Below are positions 3,031 through 28,484 of a stretch of 28,484 nt of DNA, one piece after another. Position 1 is the first letter of the stretch. Each line of letters begins with the position of its first letter. Both the position numbers and the translations under genes were made by a program. The notes under the pieces were generated by a model. The model did not search any database. It was given only the letters and a program-made list of their open reading frames with translations, and was not told the origin of the DNA. The stretch lies in NCBI GenBank assembly GCA_046757025.1, contig JBHHXN010000055.1:1-28484 (forward strand). The letters run 5' to 3'. The DNA is from a bacterium. Its GTDB lineage: Bacteria > Zhuqueibacterota > Zhuqueibacteria > Oceanimicrobiales > Oceanimicrobiaceae.

Positions 3031-3579
3031 TCAAATTTTGTCCTGCAATATTTCCGAACGCGGTTGTGGAATCACGACTTTATTTACCAGCAAGCCTTTG
3101 CTGCGAATGTATTCTGCGCCGGCTTCTACCGCCGACGTGACCGCGGCCACATCGCCGGTGAGGGTGACGTACCCTTTGCCGCCGATGGCCATGGCCAGAT
3201 GAATTTCCATCAGATGGACGTCCGCCGCTTTCACCGCGGCGTCGGCGGCTTCGATGATGGAAGCCACAGAAAAGGTCTCGATGATGCCCAAGGCGCCGGT
3301 CTGTTCGATCACCCGGGTGCCGCTGATGGCGGGAAAAACCTCCGGATGCACGTTGGGAATGGTGAGCTCGTCCACGATGGTGTCGCCGCCGATCTCCAGA
3401 CCAGCGGCAATGCTGGAGTTCACGGCCGCGGTGTCGCCGGCCACCATCACCATAAATTTGCCCGGACAGATGGTGCGGTTAAACACGATCTCCACATCGG
3501 CCGTTTTGAGCATCGCATCCGCCACTTCGTAGCCTTTGGCGATGGAAGTGAGTTCTATCAGACCGATTGCATTTTCCAT
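3031..3579 (-). CDS. pduT: Tandem-domain BMC shell protein (BMC-T), PduT-like
   Basis: AIGLIELTSIAKG...TICPGKF (PduT Fe-S ligand Cys retained); second BMC domain ALGIIETFSVAS...AIGGKGY...VIPQP. Confidence 0.92.
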   Translation of the reverse strand: MENAIGLIELTSIAKGYEVADAMLKTADVEIVFNRTICPGKFMVMVAGDTAAVNSSIAAGLEIGGDTIVDELTIPNVHPEVFPAISGTRVIEQTGALGIIETFSVASIIEAADAAVKAADVHLMEIHLAMAIGGKGYVTLTGDVAAVTSAVEAGAEYIRSKGLLVNKVVIPQPRSEILQDKI

Positions 3580-3621
3580 GACGTTCCTTTTATTGATTTG
3601 TTTTTTGAAACCAGGTGCAAT

Positions 3622-4947
3622 TCAACTTTTGCTAATAACCACAAAATCATTCACCGATTTGACGATTCCAGAAATACTGGCATGGATGGGCACGCCCAAT
3701 TGCGCCGGCGGCGCTTCCGCCAGCACCTGGCCCTTTTGCACCTTTTGTCCTTCCTGGACAATGGGATTCGGCGCTGCTCCAAACGACGGCTGCAGGGGGA
3801 TGGCCACTTCCGCGGGCTCCTCGATTGCCCTCGAGAACGGCGCTTCGGCGGTAAACGCCCCTAAACCTAATTTTCGGGCGAGCCGCTTGGATGGCACGCT
3901 GCGATGCGCTTTCAAAGGGTGTACCCCGGTGGTGAGGTTTTGCAGCTGCTCGGGACTCAACCATTTGTCGTGCTTTTTCAAATCGCGTTTGGTGACCACA
4001 CACACGTTTCTGGGATCCAGATCCTCGGGACAGGCCCAGAGCGAACAGATGTTGCATTCGCAGCAAGCCTGCGCCCAGTGCGTCAGAGACTCGCTCATTT
4101 CGCCGGTGGTCAAAAGCGAGCGCATCACCAGGTGCGGTTTGATGGGATAGCCCAACAAATAGCGCGGGCACATTTCCGTGCACAGACTGCACTGATCGCA
4201 GGCGGATTTACCGATGCGTTTGTAAGTTTGCTCGGACTGCGCTTTCCTTTCAGCGAGTTTGGACTCCCGCGCCAGTACGATAAATCCACTTGAGGTGCGG
4301 CTGACCGGCGTGTTCAAATCACTCACCACCCGTCCCATCATGGGACCGCCGTCGATGAGCACGAAATCCGCCATGGTGGCGTCGCCAGCCCGGGCAAGCG
4401 CTTCGCCATATCGCATCCCTATCGGAAACCAGGCCGTCAGCGGCTGCCGCACGTGCCCGTGGATGGTCATCATGGTGTGGGTTACGGGATGACCTTTTAC
4501 GGCGTGGTGAATATTATGCAGGGTTTCGACGTTTTGCACCACGACGCCTACCTGCAGCGGAATGCCGCCCGCGGGAATTCGGCGCCCGGTGCTGTGGTAA
4601 ACCACTTCGTACTCATCACCGGAAGGATAGACGTCTTCCATTTCAAAGATCGAAATCCCGGCCGGCAGGTCGGTAGAAAGGGCACCGATGGCGCGGCGGT
4701 TTTTGCTTTTTATGGCGACGATGCCTTTGCCGGCGCCCACCTGCTGCATCACTTGTAGCAGCCCATCCAGAATTTCACGAGCGTAGTTTTCCATCAACAC
4801 GTTATCTTTGTAAAACATCGGTTCGCATTCGGCGCCGTTGGCGATGACGATCTCCGCTTTGGATTCGATTTTTTTGTAGGTTGGGAAGCCGGCCCCACCC
4901 GCTCCGACAACGCCTGCATCCCGTACCAATTGTACCAGATCAGTCAT
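3622..4947 (-). CDS. pduS: PduS-like (RnfC-related) FMN/[4Fe-4S] oxidoreductase
   Basis: GVVGAGGAGFPT, NGAECEP, YPSGDE, SLBB GGPMMG, Fe-S motifs CDQCSLCTEMCP and CCECNICSLWACP, C-terminal IHASISG hybrid domain; adjacent to pduT. Confidence 0.88.
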   Translation of the reverse strand: MTDLVQLVRDAGVVGAGGAGFPTYKKIESKAEIVIANGAECEPMFYKDNVLMENYAREILDGLLQVMQQVGAGKGIVAIKSKNRRAIGALSTDLPAGISIFEMEDVYPSGDEYEVVYHSTGRRIPAGGIPLQVGVVVQNVETLHNIHHAVKGHPVTHTMMTIHGHVRQPLTAWFPIGMRYGEALARAGDATMADFVLIDGGPMMGRVVSDLNTPVSRTSSGFIVLARESKLAERKAQSEQTYKRIGKSACDQCSLCTEMCPRYLLGYPIKPHLVMRSLLTTGEMSESLTHWAQACCECNICSLWACPEDLDPRNVCVVTKRDLKKHDKWLSPEQLQNLTTGVHPLKAHRSVPSKRLARKLGLGAFTAEAPFSRAIEEPAEVAIPLQPSFGAAPNPIVQEGQKVQKGQVLAEAPPAQLGVPIHASISGIVKSVNDFVVISKS

Positions 4948-19689: not shown

Positions 19690-22632
19690 TTAAAAATCGA
19701 CGCCGATAGAAAAATGTGTTTTAGGAGAAAGGAGTCCTGTTACCGGACTACGATATCTTTTGAAAGGAAAATCCCATCGTAATACCAACAGTCCACCTAA
19801 ATTGAATCGGATTCCCAGGCCATAAGACGTTTTAATATCGCTGAAATCATCAAATAAATTGAATGAGATGTTGTCTCTGTTTCTGTCCACTCCCCAAGCA
19901 TGCGCAGCGTCGAAAAAGGCGACGCCAGTGAGGAAATCGTACTGCAGGGGCAGATATGGGAACAACGGAAATCGGAATTCAACATTTTGAAAAAAGACAT
20001 TGGTACCGCTAATATCGCCGAAATCCGCTCCACGAAATGTGAACGGGCCGCCAATTCCAAATATTCTCTTATCGCGACCCAAATTGGTGCCAGCAGTTAT
20101 GCGATAGGCAACAGAATATCTGGGGATACTAATGGCGAAATATTTTCGATAATCTGCTATAATCGAAGTATATTGCAGGTCCCCGACGTTTTGAGCAATG
20201 GTCAATCGGGCGCGAGTACCTGAGATGGGCGCTGCAATTCCCCAGAACGCAGAGTCCCGCACCAAAGACACGTCAAAGCTGCTAAAAATGGCGTTGCTGC
20301 CGTTACGCGAGGTAGAACGGCCTGTGGTGAAATTGAATCCAACCACTTCACTGTTCACAAAAAACACGTCCGCGCCTAATTCGAGCCGTGTGAAAGTATC
20401 AAACGGCAGAGAAGCGCCTAATCCGAAACCTCGAAAAATTTGACTGACGAATGCGAAGTCTTCGTCATCGGTGGCCGTGAACACACCGAAATCATCTCTA
20501 AATTGGAACGCAGAAATTGCATAATTCAACCGATGCTTTTGGTTGAAGTAAGTCGCAATAATGGTGGATTCCAGAGGATCGCCAAACAATGCGGCCTGCA
20601 AAATCAAAGTTTTATCGCCAAGCATATCGCTAAACAAGAAGGCGGTTTGACCGGCGAAGCCAACATTGGTTGCAAAGGCGCCGCCGCCCACGATCAGATC
20701 CGGAGATAATTTGGAATTATAATCAGACAAGAGAAATTCGGAGCTATCACCAAGGGTATATTCAAAATATTTTTCATTTGAATCTTCCAGAGGCTCTAGA
20801 ACCAAAACCTCCGAACGGTCAATTTTTTCTTTTTCATACTCATCCAACGTGTAAATGTACCATCCGCCGTTTGAAAACGCACTAAAGGCCAGGCGCCCGG
20901 TTTCCGTGGCTAAACTGATGGCAGGGCTTTCGGTAATGATTCCGGCCACACCGGTAATAAAATTGGTGATTCGATAAATTTCCCGCGTCTCCAACTCGAT
21001 GGAATAGATGTTTGGAATGCCGCTCATATCCGAGATAAAATAAATTTCAGTGCCGTCCGCCGACCAGATTGGGTTGATATGATTGCCACCGGTTTCGGTC
21101 AGCATATCAAACGTACCCGTTTCGATATCATAAAGCGCAATGTTATATTCACCAAAAATCAATTCATCGATGTGGGTATTCGGTCCGCGGTCCGTGGTAA
21201 AGGCGATGGTTTTACCGTCCGGCGACCATTGCGGATGTAGATAAGAATATCTGTCGTGGGTCAGTTTCTGTAAATTGGCTCCATCTCGGTTAACCACGTA
21301 AAGATCCGATATACCGCCGTGAATACCCGAAAATACCATTCGCCCGCCGTCAGGAGACCAGCTTGGTGCAGCCATCCCAGTGAGTTCTTTAAATTTCAAC
21401 TTTTTCATTATTTTTTTCTTATTGGCATTCACGATGTAAATAGCGTCGTTGCCGCCGGCTTTGGAGACAAATGAAAAATAGTTACCGTCTGGCGACCAAT
21501 TCATGGAAGTGTTAAAATAGCGCAGGCTTTCGTAACTTTCACTGCTTCCGCTGCGGACAATTTTATGCATTTTGTCCTTATCTTCCAGACTCCGCAAAAA
21601 CATATTGAGCGTATAATCCTTATCGCCGATGTAAGCAAGACTGTTGCCATCGGGAGAAATCGCCGGCACGATGTTCAATCGTGTGCAATCAAGACAAGGA
21701 TCCGTCAGCGGTTCCGCGACTTCTTCCGGCTTTTTCAGCAAAACATTGGCCGGTAAATAGCGCGTTCTGGCATCATCCTGCCAGCGCTTGGAAAGCTCGT
21801 TCAAATCCAAACCTGTGTGCGCCTTAAACGCCCGATTCAAATCGCCGGTGGCGCGTGCGGTTTTAAATATCCGGCCGACCACTTCTTTGCCGTAGCGTTC
21901 ACCGACATAATACCAGATAGCCTGTCCCATTCGGTACACTCGGATATCAAACACCAGATTCATTTCCGGAATGGTCAACAGTGTGTTGTTCAGCACCGCA
22001 TCCCGCATCCACATGCGCGTGATGTTGTCCATTCCCACTGAAAGGTACTCTGCCATGCCCTCCATAAACCAGAGCGGGGGGTTGAATCTTCGCACCAGAT
22101 CGGCGGGGCCATCCGATAGTAAAATATCAAACTGAAAAGCGTGCACCATTTCGTGCGTCAAAACATGAATAAATTGCGCATACGAACCGGTGATGGGTAA
22201 AATCATCCGGCCCTTTAGCGACTCAGTGACACCCTGGGTGCCCTCACTGATGTAGCTTTGGATGGCGTTGGTTTGCTGAAAATCATTATGCGAAGCATAA
22301 AGCAACATCGGTATTTTTTGTTTGAATTTGTAATCGAGAACTTCGCTGAGATACGCGTAAGAACGTTCAGCTATCTCGGCCGCATCCATGGCCGCCTGGC
22401 GTTCTTCTTTATAATAATGAATATCAAAATGTTCCGTGTTGATGACCGACCAATCAAAAGATTTATATTGAACTTTGTTTTTTCCAAATCCAAATATATC
22501 TCCGAATTGTCCGAATGCTTCTGTTGCACTTACTGTGATGAAAAGCAGAGGTAGAACATACGCAACATTCATCCATCCATCATATTTTCTATTGAAAGTC
22601 ATTTTCAATTTGAAAAATATACTTTGTTGCAT
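19690..22632 (-). CDS. Omp85/BamA-family outer-membrane protein with N-terminal zincin-like domain and PD40 (TolB-like) propeller
   Basis: Signal peptide; HEMVH...WFMEGMAEY; repeated (W/I)SPDG motifs; barrel with loop-6 motif GGPFTFRG, NVEFRFP, AFFDAAHAW; terminal Phe; GGAGGA RBS. Confidence 0.88.
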   Translation of the reverse strand: MQQSIFFKLKMTFNRKYDGWMNVAYVLPLLFITVSATEAFGQFGDIFGFGKNKVQYKSFDWSVINTEHFDIHYYKEERQAAMDAAEIAERSYAYLSEVLDYKFKQKIPMLLYASHNDFQQTNAIQSYISEGTQGVTESLKGRMILPITGSYAQFIHVLTHEMVHAFQFDILLSDGPADLVRRFNPPLWFMEGMAEYLSVGMDNITRMWMRDAVLNNTLLTIPEMNLVFDIRVYRMGQAIWYYVGERYGKEVVGRIFKTARATGDLNRAFKAHTGLDLNELSKRWQDDARTRYLPANVLLKKPEEVAEPLTDPCLDCTRLNIVPAISPDGNSLAYIGDKDYTLNMFLRSLEDKDKMHKIVRSGSSESYESLRYFNTSMNWSPDGNYFSFVSKAGGNDAIYIVNANKKKIMKKLKFKELTGMAAPSWSPDGGRMVFSGIHGGISDLYVVNRDGANLQKLTHDRYSYLHPQWSPDGKTIAFTTDRGPNTHIDELIFGEYNIALYDIETGTFDMLTETGGNHINPIWSADGTEIYFISDMSGIPNIYSIELETREIYRITNFITGVAGIITESPAISLATETGRLAFSAFSNGGWYIYTLDEYEKEKIDRSEVLVLEPLEDSNEKYFEYTLGDSSEFLLSDYNSKLSPDLIVGGGAFATNVGFAGQTAFLFSDMLGDKTLILQAALFGDPLESTIIATYFNQKHRLNYAISAFQFRDDFGVFTATDDEDFAFVSQIFRGFGLGASLPFDTFTRLELGADVFFVNSEVVGFNFTTGRSTSRNGSNAIFSSFDVSLVRDSAFWGIAAPISGTRARLTIAQNVGDLQYTSIIADYRKYFAISIPRYSVAYRITAGTNLGRDKRIFGIGGPFTFRGADFGDISGTNVFFQNVEFRFPLFPYLPLQYDFLTGVAFFDAAHAWGVDRNRDNISFNLFDDFSDIKTSYGLGIRFNLGGLLVLRWDFPFKRYRSPVTGLLSPKTHFSIGVDF

Positions 22633-23053
22633 TTTAAAAGTCCTCCAAAAATAAAAAAGTTATTTCATCATTTTTAATGTATCAAAAAAAACTTAATAAT
22701 CCAAATCTTTATTCCAAAAATTCAACTGCAATTGAATTCCTGGTAATTACAACAAATTATACCTTTGAATAATTCATTTTATTCCATCCGTCCCACCAAC
22801 AAGCCGAAACAGGTGATCTTAATTACACTTTTCAATAATGACTTAAAAAATCAGATAAGGTTAACTGGCTATGTATCCTCTGTATTCAAATTTAAACCAG
22901 AACTTCTTTTCCGGGAGGGAATCGAAAGAACCGTTAATTGGGTCGAAGCTTTTTTACAATTGAGTGAAAGCTGCATCCGCGATATGGTTAATATCGGCAT
23001 CACCGAAACAATGTGAATAATTGACTTATCAAATTCTTTTAATAATTTTTTTC

Positions 23054-23070
23054 TGCTAAAATTATGCCAA
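23054..23070 (-). promoter_or_regulatory. Possible sigma54 (-24/-12) promoter facing the Omp85 gene
   Basis: Minus strand TTGGCATAATTTTAGCA has GG-N10-GC spacing; TAGC replaces consensus TTGC. Confidence 0.3.
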
Positions 23071-23102
23071 AAAAAAACGCCTGAATTATTTCAGGCGTTT
23101 TT
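23069..23102. terminator. Intrinsic terminator, stronger on the minus strand
   Basis: A9-CGCCTGAA-TTAT-TTCAGGCG-T5. Confidence 0.85.
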
Positions 23103-23281
23103 ACTTCACAGGTTGTGGCTTCATCTAACTCAATAAAGTAATCTATATTCAGGTTGTTCTTATCTTCATCAAGTGCATAATTTGGATACTGCGGCCCTCC
23201 ATCGATTTATCCCACCGCCGTAATTTATCTTGAGCATTGTTAATAATCAAATTCACGCCGAACCTTTTCAACCATAAGTTG

Positions 23282-23491
23282 TCAGGCCAGTGCCGGCTCA
23301 ATTTGATTTCTTTTAACCGGATAACCGGCTTTGAACTGCTCAGCGTACCCCTGGGCTATCCACAACATGATGGCTTCGCTGAAAGATACTTGCTCATGGC
23401 TTTGTTGCGACAAAGACATGCGAAAGCTTTCGATCTCCATCAATTGTAATGCCATGTAATCCGACTGTTTAAAATTATTATTTTTCATCAT
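23282..23491 (-). CDS. Small helical hypothetical protein (69 aa)
   Basis: AGGAGG RBS, downstream terminator, amphipathic helical pattern QLMEIESFR..LS.....VSFSEAIMLW...YAEQF; divergent from the TPR-CHAT genes. Confidence 0.75.
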   Translation of the reverse strand: MMKNNNFKQSDYMALQLMEIESFRMSLSQQSHEQVSFSEAIMLWIAQGYAEQFKAGYPVKRNQIEPALA

Positions 23492-23873
23492 TACCTCCTA
23501 ATTTCAATAGGAGCATCTATTTAATTTTAATAAATCACTTTTGTTGCAATTTATTTTAGCAAAAAATGTACCACACAATTTAATCCACAATCGGCAGGCA
23601 GGTAAAAGTGGGTATGTGATTGTTTTATCATTATTTATATAGTTATTGATTTCAGTAGGACTTTTTTGTGGCGGATTGATCTGTCTCAATACATGTGCAA
23701 AAATGAACCTTTTTATATCGATTTGAATCAAAGTTTAGTCAATTTGGCGAAATATATGTCATGACGATATTTAAAATATTTTTAGAAATTTTGGGAGTTT
23801 GAAGGCGAATTTGTTGTCATATATAGGTAGAGAGAGTATTCCTTTTTATCAAATGAAATGGGAGGACAAGCCA

Positions 23874-25094
23874 ATGAAATCATTTCAAATAATTCAATCT
23901 TTAGAATTAAAACTAAAAAAGACACGGCGCCTCACAGGGGATTGTGTTCAAATAACTGACACTGTTAAACAGGCATTCATCAGCATGAATGCCACTGCCC
24001 CAACAGATGCCGATATCGACGAACATTTTTTAACCAAATGTTACTTTCATGGCCCACCTGAGCTGGCTCAAAATGGCATCGTTCATTGTCAGCTTTCTAA
24101 TGATCTGGTTGAGTATTTTTTTGAGCTTCTGGATAAGAGTCTATTTGCTAAATTGCAAAACGATTTGAACTCCGCAAACGCGCATTTTGCTGAAGCGAAA
24201 AAACTCGCGGATACAGTTAACGATGCTTACCTCATAAGTGAGTACGAGCAGGCATATCAATTAAAGAAAGAAACCCTGAAAAAGAAATTGCAGATCCAAC
24301 TTTGTTATGAGTACGTTAACCGAACGCTCGAACGGGATAAAAACCAGGGACACGAGCTGATCAGCGCCGGTTTAGCGCTGGCCGAAGAAATCAAGGATAA
24401 AAAGCGCATATTGGATTTTCTTTGCAAATGTCATTATGTGCTTTATGAGTTAGAGAACTACCCGCGGGTTGCCTTGAATTTAGGGGATTTTATTATTTCA
24501 GAAGCTTCACCATACGAGCCGCATACACTCTGGAGTTATTTTCACAACGGCAATATTTTTCTGGATTTTAAGCAATTTGACGCAGCCAAAACCGCTTTTG
24601 AGCAGGCGCTGGAAATCGCGCTCAAAACAAACTTTCACTACGCCGTCATGACGCTGTTTGAACGATTGGCTTTAACTTATTTTAAGCTCGGTCATCCGAA
24701 CATCGCACTCAACTTTTATCATGAGTCCCTGAACCATTCGAAAAACCTGAAAATTCGGCATCATTTAAACATGAAAAATGAAGTCCGTTGTTTGATCGGA
24801 ATCGGCAACATCCATGCCGAAGCCGCAAAAAATCAAAAAGGAGCCGAAAAAAATACTGTCTGTGCCATCGCCGAGGATCACTATAAAACGGCCCTGGACA
24901 TTGCCAACCAGATTAACTATGCTGCTAACAAAGCAGCCGCCCTTTCGAGCCTGGGTGATCTCTACCGCATTAAAAATGGTGAAAGCGATCCAAATGCCAA
25001 AAAACTGCACAATTTAGCGGTTAAAATCCATTGCGACGAGCTTAAGTTAGACAACACCCTGGAACGCGTACAGTGGGATCAGCAGCATTCTTAG
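23874..25094 (+). CDS. TPR protein (406 aa), paralogue of the N-terminal part of the downstream CHAT protein
   Basis: GGAGGA RBS before ATG 23874; TPR-like units GNIFLDFKQFDAAKTAFEQALEIA, IGIGNIH, ALSSLGDLY; no signal peptide, no CHAT domain. Confidence 0.85.
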   Translation: MKSFQIIQSLELKLKKTRRLTGDCVQITDTVKQAFISMNATAPTDADIDEHFLTKCYFHGPPELAQNGIVHCQLSNDLVEYFFELLDKSLFAKLQNDLNSANAHFAEAKKLADTVNDAYLISEYEQAYQLKKETLKKKLQIQLCYEYVNRTLERDKNQGHELISAGLALAEEIKDKKRILDFLCKCHYVLYELENYPRVALNLGDFIISEASPYEPHTLWSYFHNGNIFLDFKQFDAAKTAFEQALEIALKTNFHYAVMTLFERLALTYFKLGHPNIALNFYHESLNHSKNLKIRHHLNMKNEVRCLIGIGNIHAEAAKNQKGAEKNTVCAIAEDHYKTALDIANQINYAANKAAALSSLGDLYRIKNGESDPNAKKLHNLAVKIHCDELKLDNTLERVQWDQQHS

Positions 25095-25184
25095 TGCGGC
25101 CTGTAAAATTATGCTTGAAATTCTTCAGTGTATTTGCTTATTTTCTACAAACGACCATTCAATTTCAAAACGGCAGGGTTACGC

Positions 25185-28100
25185 ATGACTAAAAAAATTG
25201 TCATGGCGCTTTTGGCTCTAACCATCTTTATTTTCATCATTTATCGACACCCACCAGTGGCCTCAATTGCGGATATTGAGGCCACGCTGAGCGCTCAAAA
25301 TCTCTCAGAAGATACCGTGGCCGGGCAGCTGAATGCGTTGACCCAGTGGGTCGAACATTTTCAGCTCGCAGATCACGATATTCAGGATGCAGAAAACGCT
25401 TTGCCAGACCGCACCTTTCGTTCTGAGCAAGACACCCGGCTCATGCAACAGATTGCGGCTTTGCATGTCCAAAAATCAACAGAGCAGGATTCACTTTTCT
25501 TTTTTCGCAACAGAATTCCTTTATACAGACTCTTTTTCAATATTTTGAATCACCACGTCTATCGCAATTTTTTAGAAGCGAATGAAGGGAGTGAAAACGA
25601 GGGCGAATGGCGCATCGCCGGCTGGATCGCCCAGCAGTTTGAACGCTTCACGAATTTCAGACTATTTCAAAAAGAAATGGCCTTTTATCAAAATCTGAAG
25701 GTCAATCATCTCAAATCCAAATTATTGATAGAATTTTATTATCGAAAAGTTTATAACTTGTTGGTTGAAAATCCCAAAATGGCGATGGCTTATATCGGCA
25801 CGAGTTTAAAGCTGGCGAAATCCATCGGCGACGAAAGAAGATATCTGGAATTCCTCGGTCAATTGCAATTTGTGCTGTACGAAAGTTTCGGTAGTACCAA
25901 TGCGGCATGGACGCTTGGGAATCACTTGCTACAAAAAACCGAAGTAATGGGGCACACCATGAACCAGGCACTGGCGCATTACTACAATGGCAACATTCTC
26001 ATTGATAAAGGATTGTTTCCCGAAGCATTAACCCAATTCGAATCCGCGCTGGCGATTTATTCAAAATTCGGGCATGCTTCCATGGTGACCACCCTTAATG
26101 AACGCATGGGCGTCGTAAATAGACACCTTGGCCGATTCGATGCCGCTTTAAAATTTTATGACAAGATGTACGAAATAAATAAAATTCTGAACGTACCGAC
26201 AGCCCGCAGTCATTATCTGACCGGGCGGGGTTTGGTGTACAAAGAAATGGGCAAGTACGGAAGCGCCGCCGATTTTTTCACAGAAAGCCTGCGGTTTGCT
26301 CAACAATCGCAGGACACCCTCAACGAAGCCGTCTCTTACCTCAATTTAGGCGAGCTGTATTTCGATTTAGGGGATTATGACCGCTCCCTGGAATTTCATG
26401 AGCGCGGACTGGAAAGATTGCTTGCAAAGGAAAATCCCCATCTGATCACACATGCCTGGAGTCAAATAGCAGAGATTCATCTCCAGAACCATGAAATTGA
26501 GAAAGCACGCGCGGCCATAGCCAACACGCTAGCGCGACTTGCCAAATCCGATTTCGGACTTTTGAAAGCTAAAACCTATTTAAATACGGGCCAGCTTCAG
26601 CTCCAAATCGACGATTTCCAGCAGGCGTTGAAATCGTTCAATTCCGGACTGGAGATTTTCGTGCAATTTGAATTTGTGAAAGGCCAGATCGAAGCTTTAA
26701 ACTTAATAGCTGAAACACATCGACGTGCAAACAAGCCAGAATTGGCCTTGCAAAGCCTGAACACTGCTCGGTCACGGTACGACCGATTTCCACAACCCGC
26801 ATATCAGTGGGAGTGGCATTTCATCGCTGGTAAAATTCAAAAGGATTTGAATCATACAGCAGAATCGGAAAAAGAACTGCTCAAATCGATTCAACTGCTG
26901 GACGACCTTACTCTGGAGCTCAACAGCCATCAACAACGATTGACCTTTTCCCAAAAAATTCAACCGGTCTTCGAAGACATGATCTTGCTAAAAGTGGCAC
27001 AAAAAGATGCGGAGGATGCGTTTTATTTCACGGAGAAAAAACGCGCCCAGGTGTTCAAGCTGACCTTACAAAATACGCAGGAAAAAAAATCAAACGCTCG
27101 AACGGTGGCTCCCAGCCTGGCGCAGCAGTCAAGCTTTCCAACCACCGAAGCCTCTTCCCAATTCATTGATGATTTGCGATCTAAATTAAATGCCAGGGCT
27201 TGTGTCATTGTGTATGAAATCACCGAAAAGGATCTCGTTATCTGGGTGATCAGCCGACAAATCTTCAAGGCTGTCAAAGTACCCATTACGCGTAAAAAGC
27301 TGGAGAATTGGTTAACCGAATTTAGAGCCTGTACCTTCCCCGAAAATTTATCAACTCCCGCACAGATGGAAGAGACCTACTACCGGTCGAGAGCATTGGG
27401 AAAACGGTTTTATGAAAACTTAATCGCACCCATTGCCGAGGAAATTTCCAATGCGGAGCTCATTTATATCGTGGCAGACGAAGCGTTAAATTATCTGCCA
27501 TTCGCAGCCATAGTCACCCCTAACGAGGATTATTTGATCAAGCAGCATGCTTTTGCCTTGATTCAGAGTGCTGAAATTTTAAGTCGTCGCCTTTTCAAAT
27601 TTACACCGGAAAAAGTCCCTTCCATGAGCTTTCCCAGGTTGCTGGCAATTTCGGCTGATGAAAAATTAAAATACGCTTACGATGAAGTGAAAAAGGTCAC
27701 CGACATGCAGGCCGGCGCGGAATTGCTCATTGGCAGCGCGGTGACTGAAAAATCCGTCCGAAAGAAATTGGCGGAAGATTTTGGCATTTTCTTATTTTCC
27801 AGTCACAGCCAAATCGATGAAAAAGCGCCCTATTTTTCTTCTTTGATTGTCAATAAAGAGGCCGGACAGGCGAGCGATGAGAAAAATGACGGTTTGTTGA
27901 TGATTCATGAAATTCAAAATCTAAACTTGCAAAAAATGCGGCTGGTATTTCTTTCTTCCTGTGAAAGCGCTTCGGGCAAGCTGTATTTTGGCGAAGGGAT
28001 TGTCAGTATGCAACGCGCCTTCATGATGGCAGGCGCGCAAACGGTCATCGCGAATCTGTGGCAGATTGCGGATAAAAGCGCGAAAAATCTCACCGTCGAT

Positions 28101-28259
28101 TTTTACAAAATGTGGTTTAGCGGGAAATACACAAAAGCAGAAGCCCTGCGACAGGCTCAGCTTCACACCATCGCCTGGCTGCGCACCTATCCGCTTGCCA
28201 ACAAGCTGCCTCATCCATATTACTGGGCACCCGTTACCCTGGCGGGAGCATTCAATTAA
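25185..28259 (+). CDS. TPR-CHAT domain protein (caspase/separase-like protease) with N-terminal hydrophobic anchor
   Basis: MTKKIVMALLALTIFIFII; long TPR array; CHAT motifs LNYLPFAA, FSSHS (His), DGLL, LSSCES (Cys), GEGIVSMQRAFMMAGA, LWQIAD, HPYYWA. Alternative GTG start at 25128. Confidence 0.93.
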   Translation: MTKKIVMALLALTIFIFIIYRHPPVASIADIEATLSAQNLSEDTVAGQLNALTQWVEHFQLADHDIQDAENALPDRTFRSEQDTRLMQQIAALHVQKSTEQDSLFFFRNRIPLYRLFFNILNHHVYRNFLEANEGSENEGEWRIAGWIAQQFERFTNFRLFQKEMAFYQNLKVNHLKSKLLIEFYYRKVYNLLVENPKMAMAYIGTSLKLAKSIGDERRYLEFLGQLQFVLYESFGSTNAAWTLGNHLLQKTEVMGHTMNQALAHYYNGNILIDKGLFPEALTQFESALAIYSKFGHASMVTTLNERMGVVNRHLGRFDAALKFYDKMYEINKILNVPTARSHYLTGRGLVYKEMGKYGSAADFFTESLRFAQQSQDTLNEAVSYLNLGELYFDLGDYDRSLEFHERGLERLLAKENPHLITHAWSQIAEIHLQNHEIEKARAAIANTLARLAKSDFGLLKAKTYLNTGQLQLQIDDFQQALKSFNSGLEIFVQFEFVKGQIEALNLIAETHRRANKPELALQSLNTARSRYDRFPQPAYQWEWHFIAGKIQKDLNHTAESEKELLKSIQLLDDLTLELNSHQQRLTFSQKIQPVFEDMILLKVAQKDAEDAFYFTEKKRAQVFKLTLQNTQEKKSNARTVAPSLAQQSSFPTTEASSQFIDDLRSKLNARACVIVYEITEKDLVIWVISRQIFKAVKVPITRKKLENWLTEFRACTFPENLSTPAQMEETYYRSRALGKRFYENLIAPIAEEISNAELIYIVADEALNYLPFAAIVTPNEDYLIKQHAFALIQSAEILSRRLFKFTPEKVPSMSFPRLLAISADEKLKYAYDEVKKVTDMQAGAELLIGSAVTEKSVRKKLAEDFGIFLFSSHSQIDEKAPYFSSLIVNKEAGQASDEKNDGLLMIHEIQNLNLQKMRLVFLSSCESASGKLYFGEGIVSMQRAFMMAGAQTVIANLWQIADKSAKNLTVDFYKMWFSGKYTKAEALRQAQLHTIAWLRTYPLANKLPHPYYWAPVTLAGAFN

Positions 28260-28285
28260 TCACACAAATAAAAATGGAGGTTAAA

Positions 28286-28366
28286 ATGATCTTGAAAAAT
28301 AAACTCGATTATTTTCCAGAACTGGCCGATCCGAGAGACGGACCGGGCGGAGATCCCTTTAGTTAG
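28286..28366 (+). CDS. 26-aa peptide MILKNKLDYFPELADPRDGPGGDPFS
   Basis: GGAGG 5 nt before ATG, 26 nt after the CHAT stop; ends in tandem stops TAG TGA; below the ORF-track size cutoff. Confidence 0.6.
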   Translation: MILKNKLDYFPELADPRDGPGGDPFS

Positions 28367-28392
28367 TGATTGACTGAAAAGTCCATATTTCT

Positions 28393-28484
28393 TCACCCTG
28401 AGCCCTTCGACAAGCTCAGGATAAACTGCGTCGAAGGGTGATAAGCTGTTGTTTTTAAGTCATGCTTCGACTCCGCTCAGCATG
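28393..28484. repeat. Nested REP-like palindromes (runs to the window edge)
   Basis: Outer TCACCCTGAGC...GTCGAAGGGTGA encloses a reversed CCCTTCGACAAGCTCAGGA; followed by GTCATGCTTCGACTCCGCTCAGCATG. Confidence 0.75.

Follow-up and report, generated by a model that had tools for sequence, protein, structure and literature searches.

The 28,484-nucleotide (nt) stretch analyzed here (the window) is contig C55 (JBHHXN010000055.1) of a 5.96-Mb genome, 94.8% complete, from the Zhuqueibacterota (KSB1), which a passage in PMC11683472 places in the FCB superphylum. Near its end lie genes for a tetratricopeptide repeat (TPR) protein, a TPR protein with a CHAT domain (TPR-CHAT), and a 26-residue peptide, here called the cassette. 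We propose that they form the signal-reading half of a split extracytoplasmic function (ECF) sigma factor switch similar to that of DdvA, with the leaderless peptide as the signal; all enzymatic and binding steps are inferred, and we rate the chances of this proposal at about even. An earlier note on this DNA, which took the trio for a signaling or defense unit, had overlooked the membrane anchor of the protease, the fixed genomic site, and an ECF-type promoter motif that the cassette has in common with an unlinked anti-sigma gene.

The three open reading frames (ORFs) are co-oriented and closely spaced, as first described (Table 1), with 90 nt between the TPR and TPR-CHAT genes and 26 nt between the TPR-CHAT gene and the small ORF. 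The locus was compared with those of 20 other genomes of the same family (21 with its own) and with 125 genomes of the class; the conclusions do not draw on the unpublished genomes G117 and G121. The TPR-only family was found in the window's own genome and in 10 of the 20 others, and the 125 class genomes showed it in no further family. Among 1.84 billion representatives, 15 near-full-length clusters belong to it. Wherever a family genome had both proteins (11 of 11), the peptide was present as well (a second CHAT copy in genome G019, which runs to the contig edge, was left out of the trio count), and genome G020 and two metagenome loci add three, giving 14 peptides (13 aligned first and one found later). 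The earlier note would have counted its system as refuted if homologous CHAT loci lacked the TPR partner and any small ORF and the proteins neither interacted nor were co-transcribed; because the gene order recurs, that refutation fails.

Table 1. Features of the cassette, its genomic site, and the candidate unlinked regulators
Feature	Position	Strand	Remarks
TPR-only gene	23874-25094	+	406 aa
TPR-CHAT gene	25185-28259	+	1024 aa counted from ATG 25185
Small ORF	28286-28366	+	26 aa, GGAGG ribosome binding site (RBS) in front
Predicted ECF-type promoter GGGAG-N17-TGTC-ATATA	23790-23826	+	~50-85 nt before TPR start
Divergent 69-aa gene	23282-23491	-	Site marker, not part of the cassette; in 19/20 family genomes, including trio-less ones
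Candidate sigma/anti-sigma pair	C9:53223-55287 (locus L272)		Divergent ECF-like sigma, and anti-sigma with zf-HC2, transmembrane (TM), and TPR parts

The peptide of the window has the core DPRDGPGGDP and contains neither a leader nor a hydrophobic segment. In the family genomes the core reads DPxxG[PSEQ]G, with DSRGSSG in its place in one genome; the 13 aligned peptides have a variable N terminus and conserve the core on the C-terminal side, most peptides carry acidic residues before the DP, and the shortest has 18 residues. In an alignment of 12 DNA sequences, positions 1 and 2 of the core Asp, Pro, Gly, and Gly codons were invariant (12 of 12), whereas position 3 varied (commonest base in 8, 4, 3, and 6 of 12, respectively), and the RBS and ATG were kept. 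The core is thus conserved at the protein level, with a coding signature, and the ORF, whose strong RBS had been pointed out before, is more than a chance reading frame. The DNA pattern for DPRDG-x-G occurs once each in 8 of the 21 family genomes, and the reversed pattern in none; seven of the matches fall on known peptides, and the remaining one revealed a further peptide, which follows a CHAT tail. A control motif expression, composed after the peptides had been seen and hence defined on them, had no match among 947 small ORFs from 111 distant CHAT loci and 3 among 3746 in the window's own genome; among 13 close loci, 2 gave no match (L073, which ends 5 nt after the stop codon, and L133, a short fragment). 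The peptide gene lies 3' of the CHAT gene in 10 loci and between the TPR and CHAT genes in 4, suggesting that it travels with both genes whatever their order. No match to the peptide was found in Pfam, NCBIfam, or PADLOC, nor any paralogue in its own genome by tblastn.

The next-closest CHAT proteins are encoded in operons that contain, in order, genes for an ECF sigma factor, an anti-sigma factor with zf-HC2, TM, and TPR parts, a protein with two TM segments (2-TM), a small helical protein, an anchored TPR-CHAT protein, and a short 2-TM protein. The last of these starts with DPKSGPPP, DPQTGPPP, DPQSGPPP, DSKGGPP, or other Pro/Gly runs, often in two to three copies, and its motif-bearing end is probably cytoplasmic, judging by eye from the charges. 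The free peptide looks like this motif minus the membrane part. In the two sequences read, the first 2-TM protein has a C-terminal domain with HEFAH, to which no Pfam name applies, and its 2-TM part resembles DUF5676 below the cut-off (20 to 23 bits versus 27.6). This 2-TM-anchored HExxH protein (L030:6892-8136, L037:4120-5412, and relatives) is unannotated and is a candidate second protease of the cascade. The sister operon at L032 (genome G056) adjoins, upstream, genes that read like cas1 and cas6. The window's own genome has six further CHAT loci (on contigs C83, C91, C260, C79, C10, and C19), four of them with sigma-like and anti-sigma-like neighbors.

The resemblance to the N-terminal motif of the short 2-TM protein, without its membrane part, is what would be expected if the small ORF were a vestige of that membrane protein; it might also be a chance ORF, in either case without a role. 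We find this hardly credible, given the strong RBS, the wobble-dominated variation of the core, and the retention of the ORF at two gene positions and in 11 of 11 complete cassettes.

The TPR-CHAT protein matches the CHAT domain PF12770 with 170.6 bits (cut-off, 24; E value, 6.5e-50), and the His and Cys noticed earlier, His874 and Cys926, follow the TPRs and are the same in all 14 aligned relatives. We predict it to be a clan CD cysteine protease with a His-Cys dyad. The fold matches of its structure model included separase (E value, 1.6e-16), DdvA (8rot; 3.5e-15), and Csx29 (3.4e-14). The likeness to DdvA and Csx29 appears by fold only; a phmmer search with the CHAT domain returned no significant match among PDB sequences, and a word-indexed homologue search returned only 2 proteins. 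A hydrophobic segment lies near the N terminus in all 14 aligned proteases (residues 1 to 19 in the window protein, which gave no zf-HC2 match), and in the orthologues at L027, L010, L029, and L035 it is closed, as seen by eye, by a lipoprotein-type Cys. On the basis of the basic N terminus, the hydrophobic segment, and these four lipoprotein boxes, the protease is predicted to be membrane anchored and to face the periplasm, outside the inner membrane. In one relative, at L241:6651-11053, a soluble domain, one TM segment, and a TPR-CHAT part are joined in a 1330-aa protein with a DdvA-like layout, and the next gene encodes a 2-TM protein with two EPPPGSKGGGP repeats.

The paralogy proposed for the TPR and TPR-CHAT proteins held up (30% identity over 240 aa; E value, 5e-21). 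The TPR-only protein is a duplicate of the N-terminal TPR region of the protease, to which it adds about 70 N-terminal residues; in a family profile, its positions 74 to 366 correspond to protease residues 113 to 398. Its structure model is all helical (pLDDT, 90.5), and residues 1 to 135 had only generic helical or TPR look-alikes in a fold search. A reading of the N terminus as a degenerate zinc-finger anti-sigma domain was dropped because the Cys and His residues are not conserved. No TM segment or signal was detected in it, nor a hydrophobic segment in any of nine TPR proteins checked, and both it and the peptide are predicted to be cytoplasmic. The main puzzle is that the products of the trio are predicted to reside in different compartments.

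In RRNPP systems such as Rap-Phr, a TPR solenoid gene is accompanied by a gene for a small peptide whose C-terminal core is conserved, and the cassette resembles them in both respects. A comparable loop, in which the peptide would be exported and matured by the periplasmic CHAT protease and the cytoplasmic TPR protein would be the receptor and signal by protein contact, fits the conserved core behind a variable N terminus, the additional N-terminal residues of the TPR protein, and the presence of Rap TPR solenoids, including a Rap-Phr complex (E values, 6e-5 to 2e-4), among the best fold matches of the TPR model. However, LGN scores above Rap; no export leader, no Pfam match to a helix-turn-helix domain, and no oligopeptide importer or exporter in the loci were seen; the TPR protein, in a diderm host, is a duplicate of the neighboring protease and is absent from the sister operons; and the link to an anti-sigma factor would be left without account. 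We therefore regard an RRNPP-like loop as decidedly unlikely.

An alignment of the spacers 5' of the TPR gene revealed a bipartite motif, GGGAG/GAGAG-N17-TGTC-TATA, which we call ECF-type from its shape; 8 of the 10 regions upstream of TPR genes contain a match to it. With a matrix built from seven relatives and excluding the window's own genome, the window site ranked first in that genome (30.4 bits; shuffle maxima, 20 to 22), and the third match, at C9:54028, lies between the genes for a divergent ECF-like sigma and an anti-sigma, before the latter; no CHAT gene stands beside this pair. An orthologous pair occupies a fixed location in each of 12 other family genomes; there, too, the anti-sigma gene is preceded by the motif, which ranks first among the upstream regions in 11 of 13 loci and second in 2. 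Family-wide, there were 37 matches in 15 of 21 genomes, versus 3 for the reversed pattern, and several sister operons also have the motif behind the stop codon of sigma. The cassette and the anti-sigma gene thus have a promoter-like motif in common.

The C9 sigma matches TIGR02937 weakly (E value, 5.6e-6, under the cut-off). With the window's own genome counted, the pair is present in 11 of 12 cassette genomes versus 2 of 9 others (Fisher P = 0.002, for genomes that are kin and not independent); of the genomes in this count, G007 and G016 are 76% and 70% complete, and weak sigma matches in G001 and G005 were left out. One of the two cassette-less genomes with the pair, G018, keeps a remnant of the cassette at its empty site. 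The unlinked anti-sigmas group in a single clade (SH-aLRT, 91), and their best-scoring operon-borne relatives include operons with the closest sister CHATs; no CHAT-sized ORF was seen beside the unlinked pairs in the 12 regions read, several of which end at contig edges. About 30 residues past the TM segment, the anti-sigma linker has a near-invariant R-x-x-G followed by a looser R-G/S, and both are candidate cut sites. It had been noted before that no ECF sigma gene was in view: none was seen beside the cassette, so far in agreement, whereas the C9 pair and the common motif make a partner in trans the most likely arrangement.

In the proposed switch, the TPR-CHAT protease would face the periplasm and act as the site-1 protease that cuts the periplasmic TPR part of the unlinked anti-sigma, as proposed for DdvA. 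The freed sigma would transcribe the cassette (positive feedback), the anti-sigma gene (negative feedback), and about ten other loci, several of them for secreted or envelope proteins. The DPxxGxG core would bind the N-terminal TPR region of the protease, the part that was duplicated; the leaderless peptide would reach the periplasm through membrane damage, lysis of a neighbor, or some exporter; and the cytoplasmic TPR copy would retain the peptide inside the cell and so set a threshold. Other strong sites in the window's own genome precede genes for a GWxTD protein, a CBM60/FlgD-Ig protein, and an S13 carboxypeptidase (~450 nt away). One target, a secreted-looking 376-aa protein, seems by eye to have the motif in G016 too.

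Several observations weigh against this proposal. That the free peptide is homologous to the fused motif is argued from a short, low-complexity likeness. The promoter motif also occurs in G003, G007, G013, G016, and G017, in which the pair was not found, and a weak copy (3.7 bits) lies in the C79 sigma operon of the window's own genome; a related sigma could therefore read it. The TPR genes of G006 and G004 have a weak copy or none in front of them, a pooled matrix ranks the window site eighth, and local shuffles gave 7 and 2 sites above 18 bits, compared with 18 real ones. Genome G017 has the trio, and the pair was not found there, also after two motif sites had been read. The anti-sigma tree does not show which of the operon types forms the sister group of the unlinked pairs, and the distance correlation of CHAT with sigma (0.59) is no higher than that of CHAT with an unrelated gene beside sigma (0.63), so that a mirror-distance test over six to eight genomes gave no coevolution signal beyond kinship. 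Finally, the peptide has no leader and no exporter gene was seen beside any cassette locus, yet the protease is predicted to be periplasmic. As a separate observation on G017, its TPR protein (L023:9101-10048) has 315 aa, with about 90 internal residues missing.

The same circuit could also run with the opposite sign, the peptide being a securin-like pseudo-substrate inhibitor or a substrate of the protease that is made from the same promoter to shut off the response, while the TPR copy titrates or chaperones it. A Pro/Gly-rich core could resist cleavage, the separase-securin complex is among the best fold matches of the protease model, the acidic residues before the DP loosely recall a separase motif quoted in a passage of PMC11506125, and a co-encoded inhibitor of a caspase-like protease, PCi, is described in the part of 10.1101/2023.06.23.546230 that deals with the SAVED-CHAT/PCaspase system. 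The compartment mismatch applies equally here, however; the Arg of DPRD is substituted in 3 of the 13 aligned peptides, which speaks against a fixed P1-Arg site; and tandem motif copies in the sister proteins suit a released signal better. A peptide that inhibits or is consumed thus seems unlikely to us.

The cassette proteases form one clade in a quick tree (SH-aLRT, 100), apart from their operon-borne relatives. In trio-less genomes the marker gene at the cassette site (Table 1), which was dropped as a part of the system because it is also present in those genomes, abuts an M16-like peptidase gene (G001, G002, G005, G014, G016, and G018) or a symporter-like gene (G007), both labels being read from motifs, or other genes (G003 and G013). 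Between the 68-aa gene and the peptidase gene of G018 (L221) there are a promoter-like site, a 29-aa ORF with DDKPGDS...PFDP, and the last ~50 CHAT codons, which we read as a decayed cassette remnant. In G011 the trio, with the promoter motif, is at a different site. The cassette therefore looks, in trees of weak resolution, like an inherited element that sits at a fixed site among housekeeping-type neighbors and has been lost repeatedly, not like a mobile island. The "AT-richer block" described earlier holds insofar as both genes are under the genome ORF median GC (0.495); most of the AT-richness comes from the spacer (0.334), and the genes match their neighbors (CHAT, 0.453, versus an Omp85-like gene, 0.454; TPR, 0.421, versus the SLT gene, 0.420). 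In six relatives the GC of the CHAT gene (0.34 to 0.53) likewise tracks that of its neighbor.

These data bear on whether the trio is a stand-alone antiphage or cell death module in which an activated CHAT protease cuts some effector and the TPR protein and peptide are regulators. The patchy presence (12 of 21 family genomes), the fast evolution (mean identity, 32%), the defensive role of characterized CHAT proteases, and one predicted regulon site (L356, C32:6000-16500), which precedes a sigma-54 activator gene followed by tail sheath, gp19 tube, and Pvc16 genes in a contractile-injection-like cluster, would be in line with such a module. The fixed site beside housekeeping-type genes, the host-like GC, a protease tree that roughly matches the neighbor gene's tree (weakly resolved), a generic TPR match as the only PADLOC result for the window, and the lack of any effector gene seen in the loci argue otherwise, and we consider it very unlikely, even though the sigma regulon may have a defensive purpose. 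Of the signaling or defense unit first suggested, the conserved trio remains; a self-contained or defense unit finds no support in these features or in the predicted separate compartments.

No Rfam match was obtained over positions 22600 to 28484, and a sigma-70 promoter and terminator scan gave results near chance level. Before the 69-aa gene, there is a conserved sigma-54-like motif, TGGTAC-N5-TTGC (23559-23575). The family of this gene (68 to 69 aa), with DUF4032 likeness as a weak lead, mostly has a nonpolar tail such as EPALA, and a paralogue lies on C197; a second ORF of 65 to 67 aa with a TQRAA/TQKAA end follows the 68-aa gene at L028:6606-6803, L029:1793-1996, and L221:1951-2151 (all minus strand). 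A REP-like palindromic repeat lies 3' of the peptide gene (~28400-28484), its core present in 27 exact and 146 loose genome copies. At the other end of the window (3031-4947, minus strand), a tandem-BMC shell gene adjoins an RnfC/Complex1_51K-type Fe-S gene in a microcompartment-like arrangement.

According to passages in PMC11506125 and PMC6061681, DdvA of Myxococcus xanthus carries anti-sigma and protease in one chain, and proteolytic release of the sigma DdvS is proposed. The cassette and its candidate partners would resemble DdvA in the membrane-anchored periplasmic TPR-CHAT protein with a His-Cys dyad, a topology predicted for the cassette, and in the zinc-binding anti-sigma domain and ECF sigma. 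In DdvA, the anti-sigma domain, TM segment, and TPR-CHAT part are joined in one chain, whereas here zf-HC2 is on a separate, unlinked gene, and the co-encoded peptide and TPR duplicate are extra; the adjacent cognate ECF sigma that in the DdvA type controls a CBASS/CRISPR island has no counterpart beside the cassette, where neither a sigma gene nor CBASS, CRISPR, or other defense genes were seen. Craspase (Csx29/Csx30/CASP-sigma; PDB titles) and SAVED-CHAT/PCaspase/PCi (10.1101/2023.06.23.546230) likewise have an allosterically gated (TPR-)CHAT protease with a sigma downstream, and the second also has a co-encoded inhibitor, but they are CRISPR linked and triggered by RNA or cyclic oligoadenylate, whereas the cassette protease is predicted to be exported and comes with a peptide. 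Craspases are termed cytoplasmic in a passage of PMC11506125; no Cas7-11 with Csx30/31 was seen in the window or the cassette loci, and the N-terminal anchor is present. In the ECF54 context described in a passage of PMC8999054, ECF sigmas without an anti-sigma lie near CHAT and other peptidases, with proteolytic control proposed, and the passage speaks of neither a peptide nor a TPR copy; the word CHAT is not in the main text of the ECF reclassification preprint. No paper on a peptide-gated CHAT protease or on the present locus was found in listings and the beginnings of abstracts, in which subscription journals were largely missing and some results were swamped by other uses of "chat." On the features compared, the cassette falls outside DdvA-type proteins, Craspases, and RRNPP systems; it would work like DdvA/DdvS if our reading is right, and what sets it apart is that the peptide has no leader, the TPR region is duplicated, and sigma is encoded elsewhere.

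For DdvA, the one studied periplasmic TPR-CHAT protein, the activating signal is stated to be unknown in a passage of PMC11506125. TPR-CHAT proteins are widespread, and the cassette offers a candidate ligand of 26 residues, candidates for the substrate and the promoter, and 14 natural variants; since it supplies these, the question of the activating signal can be addressed using one synthetic peptide and a handful of purified proteins. If the proposed switch exists, a diderm lineage would be signaling by peptide through a protease, together with a decoy derived from partial gene duplication, which would be a new design. More tentatively, and with rather poor odds in our estimate, the circuit could be a compartment-gated alarm, and the cassette the free-peptide version of a broader family whose other members carry the motif in tandem copies on a 2-TM protein, beside a membrane-bound HExxH protease. 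In such an alarm, a leaderless peptide and a cytoplasmic decoy taken from the receptor's sensor domain would be kept apart from a periplasmic caspase-like receptor-protease until a breach of the inner membrane or the lysis of kin fires the sigma regulon in trans; this would make it a bacterial damage-signal peptide system.

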